From: Escherichia phage vB_EcoM-ZQ1
Strand: one strand, 5' to 3'
Sequence record: MW650886.1
DNA: 64,000 nt
Positions 35,400 through 61,297 of the stretch are shown here, piece by piece; position 1 is the stretch's first letter, and each line of letters begins with the position of its first letter. The translations under genes were made by a program, and so were the position numbers. The notes beneath the pieces were generated by a model. It saw only the letters and a program-made list of their open reading frames with translations, was not told the DNA's origin and ran no database searches.

Positions 35400-36236
35400 T
35401 TACACAGCTTTCGCTTCAGCCAGAGCCTGTGGAAGCCATTCATTGATCGCCTTAACCAGAGACTCAGCATCAGACTCTTTGATCTTCTGACGTTTGGTGA
35501 AGGACTTGCCGTTCACATACAGACTGAAGCCCCAGCCACCGGAAACGATAGGCGCAACGTCGACATACGTATTGGTGCGGGCGTGAAGGTTTTCAGGGTT
35601 AGCCAGTTCGGTGACCGGGAACTGGAACCAACGCATGTCTGGGTTCACGTAGCTCAGGAACACGCTGGGAACAACACCAGCTTCAATCGCCGCCAAGACC
35701 GGACCGTGATCAGAAGCGCGAGCCACGTCAACCATTTCCTCACGTTTGGTGTGACGGCGTTTACGCTCTACCAGCGCCGCCTGCGGGGTCAGGGTCTTAC
35801 CCTTCGATGCTTCTTTCAACATAGAAGACGCCAAGGAACCGATTTTCGCGTCGGACGGCTGATTGCCTTCTTCCAGCGCCGCGTTGACTGCATCTTCAAC
35901 CGCGTCTACCGGGGCGTCGGACACTGAGGCTTCACATGCATCGGCAGAGATCGGTGCTTCAGCATCAATAGTTTCAGCGACTTTCAGGGATACTTCAGCT
36001 TGGGCTTGCTCTTGGGCTTGCGCCAGAGCCTGCTGAGTTTCTTCCTTCTCTTCGGCGCTCAGACCTTCAATCAGTTCGAAGCCGTTGGCAGCCTGAAGAA
36101 CACCTTCAACCATACGGCGCAGGGTAACGTTTCCGATGATCAGACCTGCTTCTTTGATTTCAGCCTGAATAGCAGCAACGTCTTTGCCTTCAATTTCAAT
36201 TTTGGTTCCAGAATCCACATGAAGAATATATGACAT
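35400..36236 (-). CDS. hypothetical protein with acidic Ala/Glu-rich linker
   Basis: 278-aa ORF; no assignable domain. Confidence 0.5.
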   Translation of the reverse strand: MSYILHVDSGTKIEIEGKDVAAIQAEIKEAGLIIGNVTLRRMVEGVLQAANGFELIEGLSAEEKEETQQALAQAQEQAQAEVSLKVAETIDAEAPISADACEASVSDAPVDAVEDAVNAALEEGNQPSDAKIGSLASSMLKEASKGKTLTPQAALVERKRRHTKREEMVDVARASDHGPVLAAIEAGVVPSVFLSYVNPDMRWFQFPVTELANPENLHARTNTYVDVAPIVSGGWGFSLYVNGKSFTKRQKIKESDAESLVKAINEWLPQALAEAKAV

Positions 36237-55435: not shown

Positions 55436-55787
55436 TTACGACAGCTGCTTCAGTTTGTAGATCGTCTGATAGCACAGCGTCTTGATTTCATCAAGTGTGT
55501 TCTGAAGGTGGGAGTCACACTGCTTGTAGATGCCATCTACGTCTATCACCACACTGTTAATATAGGAGATAGGGTCTGGGTTGTACAATTTGATATTCTC
55601 GAATGATGGAACATACTGGCCACCCGCACCGATGTATGCTTCGGTAAACGTGTCCAGCAAGTCCTCTAGATCCCCGTAGAACTCCCCGAGTGCCTTGTGC
55701 TTGGCATAGGACGTTGTAACGAAGTGTAAGGCATGAGAGTGGGCTATAGCAAGCAGTCCACGGTTGATGAAAATACTCGCATTGACC
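55436..55787 (-). CDS. hypothetical protein (possible four-helix ferritin/Dps-like fold; weak)
   Basis: ATG at 55787 with GAGGA RBS; ORF-track start at 55843 lies inside a terminator hairpin. Confidence 0.4.
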
Positions 55788-55799
55788 ATGATGTTGTCC

Positions 55800-55832
55800 T
55801 CAGAAAAAGAAATCCCCCTGTATTTAAGGGGG
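55800..55832 (-). terminator. rho-independent terminator on the minus strand (atccccc-loop-gggggat then TTCTTTTTCT)
   Basis: read directly, downstream of the stop at 55875. Confidence 0.55.
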
Positions 55833-55874
55833 ATTGTAATCACTGCTTGACAAGAACCATCTTGATGGTTTCAC

Positions 55875-56180
55875 TTAGTCTTTGTCGGCAGACTTGCCAA
55901 AGAAGAATTCGAAACCGTCATGGACAGCAACGACTTCCTGACCTTGGGAGATACCGTGAGTCTGGTCTGGGGTCAGCTTCACCTTGATGGTGTTGCCATC
56001 GGTTAACTCCAGGTTGTAGACATCCGCCTGATTGTCAGGAGTGATCTGGGTCACGGTAGCGCCGGAACACCACTGAGTGCCATCAGCTTGTTTGGTGATG
56101 GATACGGTCTTACCCTGGACACCAGCATGGGTCTGAGGTTTAGCGGCTTGTTCTTTAAAATATTCGATAAACGGTTTCAT
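55875..56180 (-). CDS. late-promoter-driven small protein (virion component candidate)
   Basis: 101 aa; exact TATAAATA about 24 nt upstream, GGAG RBS, own terminator downstream. Confidence 0.45.
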   Translation of the reverse strand: MKPFIEYFKEQAAKPQTHAGVQGKTVSITKQADGTQWCSGATVTQITPDNQADVYNLELTDGNTIKVKLTPDQTHGISQGQEVVAVHDGFEFFFGKSADKD

Positions 56181-56236: not shown

Positions 56237-59200
56237 TCAGATCTTAATCTGCATGTTGCCACCCAGGGACTGCTCGTACTCGCTGTATGCGCCTTCCCCG
56301 TAGTCTCGTGCCCACTGGTCAGACTGCTGGGCGCTATCCAGAGTCATCAGGTTTGGTTCAGTCGGGTTGTAACCCTTGGACTTCGCATCCCGGTACAGAG
56401 TCTGCAGGTACTGGTTGGCGCGGTCAATCTGAGCTTTGAACTCGCGATATGCCCCTTCAGTTGTGTTGCGGCGGAAGGTGATATCCCAGTCCACGTTCAG
56501 AGTCTGACCATCACGGCTTGCATAGATCTGCCAATCCAGGTCGCGGCCTTTTGGTGCGTTGTCGCGGATGGAGTCGGCGTATGCCGCAAGGTCGTCCTTC
56601 GGATTGTGCGACGTGCTTTTCAGAAGTAGTGCATGACCCATACCACCGTTTGGCTCAAGAGACCATTTTCCTGTTTCTCTTCCCAGGCGTTCTATGTTGT
56701 TGAGTTGGTTTATCGACAATTCAGAAGAGTCAAATAATACCACATCACGTTTTTTGGGGGTTCTCACATAAGGGGTGAGATCAATGTCGATCATCCGGTT
56801 TATAAATTCTACCACTTCAGCTTGTTTCTTTGGCAATGTGGTATTGATATCCGGCTTGTTTGCCACTTTCTCTAGGCGTTTATTTTCTGCGCTTATCATG
56901 GACAGCATAATTTGTGTAACTTTGCCGTCAGACAAGTTGTAATCATTCCAAATCACTTCACCTTTATCCGTGATGGTTATATCGTTCAAGAACACCTGGT
57001 TTGGGTTGTATGACTGACTTTTCAACTGTTGGAGGTTTCTGGAAAGATATACCATTTTTGATGAAATCTCATCAATCACACTCTGGACCATATCTTTGTT
57101 TAAAGGAAGTTCATATGTCTTCGGATTGTTCAGGGTACGCCCTTTCTGAGAGACAATTGGGGTGAATGCAACTTTACCTTTGTCGTAGTAATAGGTCACG
57201 TTGGTTATCATAGAAGTACCGGCGTATTTTCCCGTTTCGGGGAAATTGACATCCCACCGAATGGACATGCCGTTGACAGTCTCACCAAACACCATGGCGT
57301 TGCTTGGTATCTTCAGGGTTCCAGAGTTGACCAGATCAGCGCCTTGGGCATTCAGGTCGATAGAACCATAGATAGCCCCGGTAATACGATCTTTCAACAT
57401 CAGGGTCTTGTCGCCCTTCTCTGGGATGATTTCCAGCGGGTGCTTGCCACGCGGAGGTTCTTTGATGAGTTCCAGTAGAGCAGTTTTCCCTGGTTTCACA
57501 CGATTCAGGACAGCGTCGGACACTGTCAGAGTCCAGTTTGCGGTTTCCACATAACCCCAGCCCCGAGAACGGCGAATGGCTTTGATAGGATATGGAGCGC
57601 TTGTTGGCACTGCGCTAATTTCCCATTTGCCAGTGTACTGGGTCTTGGCAACCTCAAAGATGGACGCAATTACTGCATTGGCGACGTCACGGGCGCTACC
57701 TTTGGCCACGTTCTCCTCTTCAGCAATTTCGCTGAAAACTGAGTATTGAACGAAACCAGCGAGGACGTTTGTGAAGTTGACAACGATAACCAACCCGCCT
57801 GCTGTCGTGTAACGACCAGCGCCCACACGACGGATGTTTTCACCAGGAAGAATAGAAGTGTCCAACCCAACGTTGGTATCAATGATACCCAGAACACGAG
57901 CGATGAAACCACTGTCACGTAATTGATCAACACTGGTTGCACCCTCGGTCGAATCCGATGCGGATTTAGACACTTTGTTCAACTTGATAGAGACAAGGGT
58001 TTCCCCGTTGACACCGATGATATCCCATTCAGTACCCTGCTCGTTCGAGGTGCGGGCAATCTTGCGCTTTGAATTGATGGCACCTTCGTAACGCCCGTTC
58101 TTGACCACAACAGAGGCAGTAGCAGCATCAGTCGCACTTGCTGCATTTGAAAAGTCTGGGTCAGAAATACTGATGTCGACGTCACCGTTTTGAGAACGCA
58201 TGCGAACACCGTTTTTGAATCGTTCAACGTTTACTTCTCGAGCACCAAGTCGTTTGGCATCAATAACAGCAGTTCCAGAACCGATAATGTTGGCTGGGTT
58301 ATTTCTGTCTGAACTGTTTTGAGAACCTTTCCAAAATTTTGTAGACGCCATGGTGAAATCATTCAGGATATTGATAGGGACTTGCGGTAATTTCAACTGA
58401 CGAGCAATGAAATCAGCACTTTGCCCACGCACAGGTTTCTCATTCATGTATGCGCCAACATACACGCCCGGCTCATTGTAGTGGGGAGCGATATTTGCCG
58501 TGTTCGTGCGGCCTCTCTCCTTACCAGCCCATAACAACATGGGCTGATCCCCGTTTGAAGTTAATTTCCATCCGTTGCCATTGCTGGTGTCATTGCTGGT
58601 GTCATTGCTGGTGTCAACGTCCACCACCAGAATTATCTGAGCACCTTTCTTGAAAGTGTACTGATCGTACATACCTTTCTTCTGTTTGGTCATGGACGCA
58701 CCGACCAAGTCTTGGTTGGTGAAGCCGCGCTTCATATTCCAAGATACCTCAGTCCCGTCTGGATATTTGTCAAAATCATAACCATAGAATGTGGCTACTT
58801 CTTTCGAACCGCTTATCAGACGGACGTAATTTCCACGAATCGGGTCTCGCCCGCTCTTCAACTCCAGACCAGTGTCCGAGCTGTTGTACCACTCGCGGTT
58901 GACTTCTATTTCAGAAGAACCAGCCCCAACTCCCACATCCGGAGTATTGTTCTGAACCGGAACGTCACCGACTTTGTCTGGATCATCCCAGGTGATACCC
59001 TGCATCTTCGGACCGTCGAATACCTGAGCCGGATCTTTACCCTTACGAACTAGCCACACATAACCACGGTCAGGAACAGGCGCGTAGGTCAGGTCCATGA
59101 CGTTCAGTTTCTGCTTCAGGCCGGACTGGCGGATGATCTTAGGAATCAGGGTCATACCGCGATCCAGCGCTTTCTTAGAGAAGTTGACAGCAAAGCCATC

Positions 59201-59527
59201 GATGGTCTTACCCAGAGGGGTCGCCATGAATTGTTTGGTCGCTTCGATCATGGAAGCGATAACGCGCATTGGGTTCTTGAAGCGAGCGATGGCGTCAGGA
59301 TAGACGGAGCCGCGCTTCTGGCCGATGAAAACCTGACGAACGCTCTTGCCCAGCCCCTGAGGAGTATAGAACTGAATGCGGTATTCCTTATCATCTTCGT
59401 CGACGAAGGTAAAGAACACATCGCCTGCGTTCTTCTTACCCATGGTCAGCTCATACGGAGCGGAGTTGAACGCTTCGTCTAACTGATCTCTTTCCTGCAT
59501 GAACTGGAGGAAACTTAGCTTTGACAT
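56237..59527 (-). CDS. large hypothetical protein (1096 aa), possibly virion-associated
   Basis: long uninterrupted ORF with AGGAGAT RBS; contains in-frame (TSND)n repeat; no catalytic motif recognised. Confidence 0.6.
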   Translation of the reverse strand: MSKLSFLQFMQERDQLDEAFNSAPYELTMGKKNAGDVFFTFVDEDDKEYRIQFYTPQGLGKSVRQVFIGQKRGSVYPDAIARFKNPMRVIASMIEATKQFMATPLGKTIDGFAVNFSKKALDRGMTLIPKIIRQSGLKQKLNVMDLTYAPVPDRGYVWLVRKGKDPAQVFDGPKMQGITWDDPDKVGDVPVQNNTPDVGVGAGSSEIEVNREWYNSSDTGLELKSGRDPIRGNYVRLISGSKEVATFYGYDFDKYPDGTEVSWNMKRGFTNQDLVGASMTKQKKGMYDQYTFKKGAQIILVVDVDTSNDTSNDTSNGNGWKLTSNGDQPMLLWAGKERGRTNTANIAPHYNEPGVYVGAYMNEKPVRGQSADFIARQLKLPQVPINILNDFTMASTKFWKGSQNSSDRNNPANIIGSGTAVIDAKRLGAREVNVERFKNGVRMRSQNGDVDISISDPDFSNAASATDAATASVVVKNGRYEGAINSKRKIARTSNEQGTEWDIIGVNGETLVSIKLNKVSKSASDSTEGATSVDQLRDSGFIARVLGIIDTNVGLDTSILPGENIRRVGAGRYTTAGGLVIVVNFTNVLAGFVQYSVFSEIAEEENVAKGSARDVANAVIASIFEVAKTQYTGKWEISAVPTSAPYPIKAIRRSRGWGYVETANWTLTVSDAVLNRVKPGKTALLELIKEPPRGKHPLEIIPEKGDKTLMLKDRITGAIYGSIDLNAQGADLVNSGTLKIPSNAMVFGETVNGMSIRWDVNFPETGKYAGTSMITNVTYYYDKGKVAFTPIVSQKGRTLNNPKTYELPLNKDMVQSVIDEISSKMVYLSRNLQQLKSQSYNPNQVFLNDITITDKGEVIWNDYNLSDGKVTQIMLSMISAENKRLEKVANKPDINTTLPKKQAEVVEFINRMIDIDLTPYVRTPKKRDVVLFDSSELSINQLNNIERLGRETGKWSLEPNGGMGHALLLKSTSHNPKDDLAAYADSIRDNAPKGRDLDWQIYASRDGQTLNVDWDITFRRNTTEGAYREFKAQIDRANQYLQTLYRDAKSKGYNPTEPNLMTLDSAQQSDQWARDYGEGAYSEYEQSLGGNMQIKI
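58579..58614. repeat. 12-bp tandem repeat, three perfect copies (cattgctggtgt), in frame inside the 1096-aa ORF, encoding (TSND)3
   Basis: copies at 58579-58590, 58591-58602, 58603-58614 with partial copies flanking. Confidence 0.8.
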
Positions 59528-60044: not shown

Positions 60045-60683
60045 TTACGGCGTCGGATTCACAACCGGAATGTGGGATCGAATACCTGCGATGATGTCCT
60101 TCAGCCGAGGATTCCATCCACCCACCAAACGGGGGAGAGCGATAGCGCCAGGCTGGACCAAAATGATGTCGCTGCCTGTGATATTGTGCTGAGGGAACTG
60201 AGCAAGGTACTGCTCCATGGCGACACCCTCATCAATCAGAACAGGACCGACATCAGATGACGCGTAGGTTGCACCCAGACCGTCAACGCCCCATGCCAAG
60301 ATACCCCAGTCAGGGATGTTGGCTTCAGATGTGATGGTGAATCCAAACACGGTGTTCAGCGAAGTAAAGGAATAGACATCGTGGGTGATGTCATACACCA
60401 GATACCCCTTGGCCAGCATATCGGCAAAGATCGCGTCCGTATCGCCAACAGCCGGAGTCGGCACAGTAAACAACAGCTCGCCATCAGGAGGAGCAGGATA
60501 CGTGCCGAGGGCATAGAGGCACCATGCATCAATGCACTTCTTAATGAACGCCTCTGGCGCGACATAATCAGCAAGGCGAACCGTACCTGAGTACTCTGAT
60601 ACGATAATGCCTTCCTTCGCACCCTGTAGAGCAATGAAGACCAAGATATGTTCATATCCGGCCTGAGATGGAGTGATGTTCAT
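60045..60683 (-). CDS. hypothetical protein
   Basis: start set at ATG 60683 (MNITPSQ...), TGATG-coupled to the upstream gene stop; ORF-track start 60779 overlaps the upstream CDS. Confidence 0.4.
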   Translation of the reverse strand: MNITPSQAGYEHILVFIALQGAKEGIIVSEYSGTVRLADYVAPEAFIKKCIDAWCLYALGTYPAPPDGELLFTVPTPAVGDTDAIFADMLAKGYLVYDITHDVYSFTSLNTVFGFTITSEANIPDWGILAWGVDGLGATYASSDVGPVLIDEGVAMEQYLAQFPQHNITGSDIILVQPGAIALPRLVGGWNPRLKDIIAGIRSHIPVVNPTP

Positions 60684-61297
60684 TATCTTGTCCTCTTCAG
60701 TTTCTCTATTGTGTGCTTGTTCATGGCGATCACCTGAGGATCTACCTCGGAGATGGTCCGGCCTTCGAAAGACACACATTTCTGAAGATATTTAGCTTTC
60801 TTCACGACGTCGGCAGCATAAGCGTTCGATGCAGGATTACGGGCGAAGCCAGCATTGTAAGAGGAGAGGGATTTGCGGATATTCTGATTGTGATAGGTCA
60901 GCCAGAACTGCATCTCATCGAGGGCGGCTTGCGCGGCATATTCTTGGTCGGTCAGCAACTTTATGGCGACATTGGCATAGCACTTGCGATTCTTACAACC
61001 TTCGCGATCACCAACTGTCTTCACCTTGTTCTGAAAGGCTCCCATGTTGGCCGCCTTGAGACCGTATCGCATTGACACTACATCTTCACCAGCGCGGCTC
61101 TCTCGCCAAGATATGGCGGCCAGAGTGTAGCCAAGATCTTGTGTCTTGCCTACGTGATAGGCGGTTGCCATCGTATTAAGTTGTTGCTCGGAGAAATTAT
61201 AAACACATTGACTTGTATTTTGGGAAGCGTGCACATTCCCGCTGGCAATGGTAAAGGTCACGGACAAGGCCATGGCCTTCAACGTTGTCATCGTCAT
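60683..61297 (-). CDS. soluble lytic transglycosylase (SLT-domain) with N-terminal signal peptide
   Basis: N-terminal signal-like MTMTTLKAMALSVTFTIASGNVHAS; SLT motifs ISWRESRAGED (E-S) and SSYNAGFA (Y-N-x-G). Confidence 0.55.
   Translation of the reverse strand: MTMTTLKAMALSVTFTIASGNVHASQNTSQCVYNFSEQQLNTMATAYHVGKTQDLGYTLAAISWRESRAGEDVVSMRYGLKAANMGAFQNKVKTVGDREGCKNRKCYANVAIKLLTDQEYAAQAALDEMQFWLTYHNQNIRKSLSSYNAGFARNPASNAYAADVVKKAKYLQKCVSFEGRTISEVDPQVIAMNKHTIEKLKRTR

Follow-up and report, generated by a model that had tools for sequence, protein, structure and literature searches.

A short in-frame tandem repeat as a probable length-variable linker in a mosaic virion protein of Ackermannviridae phages

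In the 64,000-nucleotide stretch of the genome of Escherichia phage vB_EcoM-ZQ1 analysed here (record MW650886.1; referred to as the window, to which all positions apply), a large gene carries three head-to-tail copies of a 12-base-pair (bp) unit, which raises the question of whether this repeat varies in copy number between related phages, and of what its variation would mean for the encoded protein. The + strand at 58579–58614 consists of three copies of cattgctggtgt with zero mismatches. Tandem Repeats Finder places the minus-strand array at 58579–58616 (period 12, 3.2 copies, 100% matches) with a score of 76, the highest of 13 rows for the window; the second-best tandem repeat, 1.9 perfect copies of CTTGGGCTTGCT at 35998–36021, scores 46. 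A self-match of 26 bases at an offset of 12 is expected about 1e-10 times per window (our own estimate, roughly 0.25^26 x 64,000), and the array is therefore not a product of chance. It lies within a minus-strand open reading frame (ORF) of 1096 amino acids (aa) at 56237–59527, which has 265 homologues. Direct reading of the sequence and Tandem Repeats Finder thus agree with the original prediction as to the three perfect copies and their host ORF. In the true codon register, the units read GAC ACC AGC AAT and encode (DTSN)x3, residues 305–316 (58580–58615), in the context ...ILVVDV-(DTSN)x3-GNGWKL..., so that the array peptide is made solely of Asp, Thr, Ser and Asn. The earlier description of this peptide as (TSND)3 named the right peptide in a register that is off by one residue, in which the last unit would have G in place of D. 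The partial flanking copies that it mentioned amount to two more matching bases and a degenerate GGCAAC, and are weak. With identical units repeated head to tail, a unit length that is a multiple of three and a location within a real gene, the array is an in-frame coding variable number tandem repeat (VNTR). A + strand ORF that runs across it (58450–58653, 67 aa) was taken as a by-product of the gene on the opposite strand. Neither a promoter nor a terminator was predicted at the repeat site on either strand, and no unusual RNA fold was found there on either strand (fold z-score -0.64); a regulatory or RNA-structure role was rejected on this basis.

Copy number was surveyed in the DNA of the loci fetched from relatives and in 120 homologue protein clusters. 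Arrays of one, two or three units were found, some with 15-bp DTSSN variants, so that the count is not invariant across related phages, the comparison by which the original prediction of a variable copy number was to be judged. Three units followed by GGCAAC, ahead of the module starting with NGWKL, are shared by the window and Escherichia phage YX22, while two metagenome contigs (L014 and L015) have two units and GGCAAC within the same flanks as in the window. Where GACAAC follows instead, there are three units in an IMG/VR contig (L020) and two in K5lambda5, P0001, P0006 and P0053. The 15-bp variant occurs as DTSN-DTSSN in P0063, as DTSN-DTSSN-DTSN in P0055 to P0058, and as DTSN-DTSSN-DTSSN (12+15+15 bp) in K751, T751 and T765, where the additional codon is a duplication of AGC. 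A single unit followed by an unrelated linker, SSSVDDSN, is found in CECAV_050 and P0007 to P0009. In Klebsiella phages (Taipeivirus) that carry a different module (DELTKSKW) downstream, the arrays have about three units and are decayed by point changes (DTSN-DTGN-DTSD, DTSN-DTSN-DTSD, DTSN-DTGN-DTGD and others). Scanning with a 25-mer made of the flank and the first unit found two loci in IMG/VR contigs and no match in metagenome contigs.

The most direct evidence for the gain or loss of whole units comes from three pairs of nearly identical sequences, each of which differs by one unit as its sole indel. The window and L014 are 97.35% identical over gene nucleotides 1–1208, with one 12-nucleotide gap; the ORF of L020 and P0053 are 99.1% identical over 811 aa, with a gap of 4 aa; and P0055 and P0063 are 99.0% identical over 903 aa, again with a gap of 4 aa. 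Between P0055 and P0065 (98.3% identity) there are two single-residue gaps, one of which is an extra Ser (the AGC triplet) inside the array. All the allele differences observed are of 12, 15 or 3 bp. Alleles of two and of three units are each found in two downstream contexts, G/KLTSNG and D/KLAKAD, which indicates that the unit change happened repeatedly. Since copy number varies, and since three near-identical pairs differ by one unit only, these results support the idea of slippage that changes the length of a linker.

That the array is a linker is consistent with the predicted structure of the protein. In a full-length AlphaFold2 model, built on an alignment of 46 family members (mean predicted local distance difference test score (pLDDT) 70.9), residues 306–316 have a pLDDT below 50 and lie between strands at 296–304 and 319–322, as the original prediction of a linker would have it. 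They are flanked by two optional, beta-rich modules on the minus strand: cassette A (residues 205–304, 58616–58915), present in about 27 family clusters, and cassette B (residues 318–400, 58328–58576), which starts with NGWKL and stands before or after A depending on the phage. Similar low-confidence gaps of the model are at residues 171–233, 401–413, 490–496, 518–522, 889–894 and 971–974. The array is thus probably a hydrophilic, unstructured spacer at the C-terminal edge of cassette A. In-frame coding VNTRs are known from modular proteins of bacteria and phages, where they encode interdomain linkers rich in Ser, Thr, Asn and Asp. The DTSN array resembles these in its perfect head-to-tail units, in its unit length (a multiple of three), in its hydrophilic, low-complexity peptide between folded modules and in the differences by whole units among close relatives, while it differs from them in being very short (at most three units) and in its narrow range. 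The repeat itself is ordinary, a further example of the familiar in-frame polymorphic linker VNTR.

Taken together, these observations are best explained, with good though not complete confidence, by a copy-number-variable in-frame repeat that serves as a passive unstructured spacer after cassette A of a modular Ackermannviridae virion protein. According to this explanation, identical 12-bp units, and the AGC triplet inside them, would occasionally be gained or lost by replication slippage or unequal recombination, and each such step would make the connection from cassette A to cassette B 4–5 residues longer or shorter. The effect of copy number is probably near-neutral and the length under weak constraint, because no allele breaks the frame, the range spans one to three units, and the older arrays are decayed by point mutation. 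Three points weigh against the explanation. Slippage would seldom occur in an array of so few copies, and recombination between alleles could equally explain the variation. No allele with more than three units was found among the relatives examined, which means that the array is not a hypermutable locus. Lastly, the disorder call comes from an AlphaFold2 model with a shallow alignment, and this model predicts even cassette A poorly (pLDDT 40–64). As for phase-variable contingency loci, the array shares with them a tandem repeat within a gene that is prone to the gain or loss of units, but its units are of 12 or 15 bp, its copy number is tiny and there is no promoter at the site. Units of these lengths never break the frame, which makes on/off switching impossible, and the array is not a phase-variation locus.

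The alternative that survives best concerns the gene in which the array lies, which is itself a mosaic. The 180 phage records that match this gene all belong to Ackermannviridae (Kuttervirus, Agtrevirus, Taipeivirus and Limestonevirus); the closest is that of YX22 (98.7% over 88% of the gene), and most others match piecewise. Mapping segments of the query onto the 120 homologues gave a layout with an N domain, zero to four cassettes of 100–130 aa that vary in combination and in order, a core and a C-terminal domain. In the window, where the gene (PHROG 3867; 56237–59527, minus strand, with its stop codon at 56237–56239) encodes cassettes A and B in that order, the N domain (residues 1–195, 58943–59527) is universal in the family. 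Downstream of cassette B follow the optional cassette C (residues 414–505, 58013–58288), the D-E core (residues 506–925, 56753–58012), which is kept in most family members and predicted with a pLDDT of 80–93, and then the variable F region (residues 926–969) and the C-terminal G domain (residues 970–1096), which together occupy 56240–56752. The other cassettes in the family are optional and of 100–132 aa each. Cassette C and three of these (X101, X132 and X103) are weakly related to one another, while A and B are unrelated. At least 40 cassette architectures occur among the 120 homologue clusters, with N-B-C-D-E-G in 28, N-B-D-E-G in 23, N-A-B-D-E-G in 9 and N-D-E-G in 4; N-X-B-A-C-... and N-X-A-B-C-... 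were also seen. The core is not exempt from this plasticity, as the E-region sub-domain (residues 735–885, about 56870–57325) is tandemly duplicated in the distant homologues P0125 and P0132, so that the conserved core is partly cassette-like in some family members. The homologue of LIMEstone1 is wholly without the D-E core. In the records of LIMEstone1 (L017, 4001–5597) and Shigella phage Ag3 (L012), the homologous gene is split into two or three ORFs; in LIMEstone1 the frame changes near residue 104, yet mass spectrometry (MS) peptides are known from both ORFs. The change of frame may reflect a real frameshift or an error of sequencing.

It can be argued that the repeat matters chiefly as a recombination site. 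In this view, cassettes would be broken and joined again in the low-complexity linker DNA, and the array would result from the shuffling of cassettes, or promote it, and would owe nothing to slippage. When the 441 bp centred on the repeat were searched with blastn, relatives matched either up to query positions 227–242 or from 244 on, and since the repeat occupies query positions 205–242, the break in homology coincides with the array. The DTSN-type linker always trails cassette A, whether B, the DELTKSKW module or the E region comes next, and the order of the cassettes differs, being A-B here and B-A in cp18, Magnus and LHE287. The other cassette junctions likewise fall in short G/S/D/N-rich linkers. 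However, the linkers found in different contexts share little DNA similarity (compare GACACCAGCAAT and TCATCTTCTGTTGATGATTCC, both ahead of AACGGATGG), and because of this the repeat marks a junction without being an evident substrate for homologous exchange. Moreover, differences of plus or minus one unit in genes that are 97–99% identical require no exchange of cassettes. We consider it rather unlikely that recombination is the chief role of the repeat; its support is descriptive rather than mechanistic, it is compatible with the length-variable spacer favoured here, and the two can coexist.

A role for the DTSN units as functional motifs under selection for their number, be it as cation-binding Asp/Asn loops, N-x-T sequons or protease sites, is considerably less probable still. 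Residues 244–338 gave a phmmer match to a dockerin- and Ig-containing chain (5k39_B, E 0.022), but this match is weak, not significant and probably compositional, and no Pfam or NCBIfam family was matched. By inspection of the sequence, the N-D-T tripeptides fit the generic N-x-S/T pattern, and a degenerate form of the units is kept in distant contexts. On the other hand, the units vary freely (DTSN, DTSSN, DTGN, NTSD and DTDN), the region is predicted to be disordered, and the unrelated SSSVDDSN can stand in for them. That they are freely substituted, or swapped for an unrelated linker, is what makes this role improbable. A chance feature or an assembly artefact without biological variation is excluded, with nothing found in its favour, by the chance expectation given above, by an identical three-unit array in the independently sequenced YX22 and in an IMG/VR contig, and by alleles that differ by whole units.

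The protein in which the array lies deserves attention in its own right. Searches of the whole 1096-aa protein against Pfam, NCBIfam and the sequences of the PDB returned nothing significant, and the PHROG to which it belongs, family 3867, is one of unknown function. Residues 900–954 match PHROG 7673, annotated as an internal head protein (E 4.4e-10), although the match is partial (profile positions 21–75 of 90) and the name is an annotation. No convincing structural match in the PDB was found for the D-E core, despite its confidently predicted fold. The G domain (56240–56620, minus strand), with the motifs TFRRNT and SAYSEYEQSLGG, is a widespread module: about 60 other protein clusters, small proteins of 110–300 aa among them, carry it at their C-terminal end. 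In the database records, the homologues are annotated as hypothetical proteins, with an occasional and unsupported endolysin or tail completion protein.

The original prediction described the protein as probably virion-associated, and this holds for its relatives in LIMEstone1 and Sajous1, whose homologues were detected in virions by MS. In the LIMEstone1 record, the homologue is split into ORF82 and ORF81, both annotated as confirmed structural proteins, and MS of the virion gave 23 unique peptides (55% coverage) for ORF81 and 4 unique peptides for ORF82 (PMC3296691). The same study reported an unexplained cluster of structural proteins at ORF78–85, and structural counterparts in ViI for all 12 of the LIMEstone1 structural proteins of unknown function (PMC3296691). 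In the Salmonella phage Sajous1, gp214 is syntenic with the gene studied here (between recombination endonuclease genes and the primase) and is 86% identical to its product in the N domain, 62% in B, 35% in D-E and 75% in G; with 196 spectra from CsCl-purified virions, it is among the five most represented proteins (PMC10892097).

The N domain offers an explanation for how such a protein could enter the particle. Its distribution was established by an exhaustive search of 1.84 billion representatives, in which it heads about 76 clusters of 300–1439 aa that are otherwise unrelated in sequence. Five of 60 distant N-domain proteins carry an ADP-ribosyltransferase (ART) domain of PF03496, the family to which the catalytic domain of T4 Alt belongs; no match to this family was found for the 1096-aa protein in the Pfam search. 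An AlphaFold2 model of the N domain (40-sequence alignment) reached a pLDDT of 89 and a predicted template modelling score (pTM) of 0.80. In a Foldseek search of BFVD with this model, the matches besides family members were Alt RNA polymerase ADP-ribosylases of T4-like phages, with TMq values of 0.54–0.61: phiAS5 (E 1.5e-6), CF1 (7e-6), HY03 (1e-5), SP18 (1.1e-5), 50AhydR13PP (1.6e-5), Henu6 (3.4e-5) and Melville (A0A2D1GM69, 1.8e-4). The Melville protein shares 64% identity with the N-terminus of T4 Alt and has PF26846 (Alt N-terminal) as its sole Pfam family. Judging from these models, the N domain folds like the N-terminal domain of T4 Alt. The link to Alt rests on structure, because the sequence matches are weak: the N-domain hidden Markov model (HMM) run directly against T4 Alt scored 4–5 bits, in register, and T4 Alt matched the distant relatives firmly in phmmer on ART domains only. 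In hhalign, sequence similarity alone was likewise not significant (probability 12.6%, E 0.0023, 156 columns), with query positions 15–178 colinear with Alt 2–178. The lack of the catalytic domain also means that the protein is not an Alt orthologue, and its cargo consists instead of the cassette array and an uncharacterised core.

The N-terminus itself is compatible with processing in the head. About 40 copies of Alt are found inside the T4 head. The protein is ejected with the DNA, and gp21, a prohead protease with cleavage sites after Glu, removes its short N-propeptide (PMC9026906). The alignment by hhalign sets the nearly invariant L-x-E18|A-F of the family (LDE18|AF in the window) opposite ITE6|LF of T4 Alt, so that L-x-E stands where Alt has I-T-E. 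Residues 1–18 (59474–59527, minus strand) are thus a candidate propeptide that ends L-D-E18, with a Glu that is nearly invariant across the N-domain family, and we infer that the protein enters the head by way of its N domain and is shortened by cleavage after Glu18. Most likely, the host protein is built into the head and is thereby part of the particle. The head-to-tail modules are also reminiscent of T4 Hoc-type strings, in that about 100-aa beta-rich modules are arranged as beads on a string, in varying number, in an abundant virion component. Unlike Hoc, however, the protein has no Ig-like or other Pfam domain detected by the Pfam search, and no structural match to Hoc or to Ig domains was seen among the top hits of the structure searches. 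LIMEstone1 also carries a separate Hoc homologue, ORF6 (PMC3296691). An internal rather than an external location is suggested by the Alt-like N domain.

The range of proteins headed by the N domain suggests that it is a general packaging handle for proteins delivered with phage DNA. Taking this further, we tentatively put forward a class, not described before, of capsid-packaged and host-injected polymorphic proteins, in which an Alt-type N packaging domain with an L-x-E site would carry interchangeable cargo, including linker-shuffled cassettes. Of these linkers, the one last active would be the DTSN array, and the diversification would result from conflict with host defences. This reading as a whole is possible rather than probable. 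In the open-access literature, we found neither this family with its shuffled cassettes nor a general cargo-handle role of the N domain described, and nothing relevant on a cryo-electron microscopy study of an Ackermannviridae capsid or on an Alt-type packaging domain.

Several genes in the vicinity also have homologues in virions. Just downstream, a 101-aa ORF (55875–56180, minus strand) corresponds to residues 1–100 of a virion protein of 189 aa (PHROG 4048, positions 1–100 of 189), with 94% identity to LIMEstone1 ORF080 and 83% to Sajous1 gp215. As it covers only 100 of the 189 residues, it is truncated in the window phage. Its N-terminus, MKPFIEYFKEQAA, presumably resembles the capsid-targeting sequence of T4 internal proteins. 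Next to it, 55436–55843 (minus strand) encodes a DUF5856 (PHROG 858) protein, annotated as a starvation-inducible transcriptional regulator and Dps/ferritin-like, whose homologues were detected in virions (LIMEstone1 ORF78 and Sajous1 gp217); together with other virion proteins, it forms a cluster next to the primase gene and apart from the main structural module. On the other side of the gene, a 204-aa protein (60683–61297, minus strand) has a signal-peptide-like N-terminus and a below-cutoff match to an SLT transglycosylase (PF01464, E 4e-4). Its homologue in Sajous1, gp211, is annotated as an RNA endonuclease, a label that looks doubtful because 31 spectra were obtained for it in virions. 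The mechanically called 244-aa ORF at 60045–60779 (minus strand) overlaps the upstream gene; since its DUF7270 match begins at residue 33 (MNITPSQ...), the protein probably starts at an internal codon and has 212 aa, as it does in relatives.

On its own, the repeat is a small and probably near-neutral length polymorphism, of use mainly as a marker for strain typing and as a caution for the assembly and annotation of its host gene. Its context is of more interest, as the array sits at a boundary within a gene that is among the most mosaic of the Ackermannviridae and codes for an abundant virion protein that is annotated as hypothetical, or wrongly, in every record. If the N domain is confirmed as a packaging handle, injected phage effectors could be recognised by it in genomes, and the protein would be a natural scaffold, with linker positions that tolerate change, for engineering cargo into therapeutic Ackermannviridae phages.

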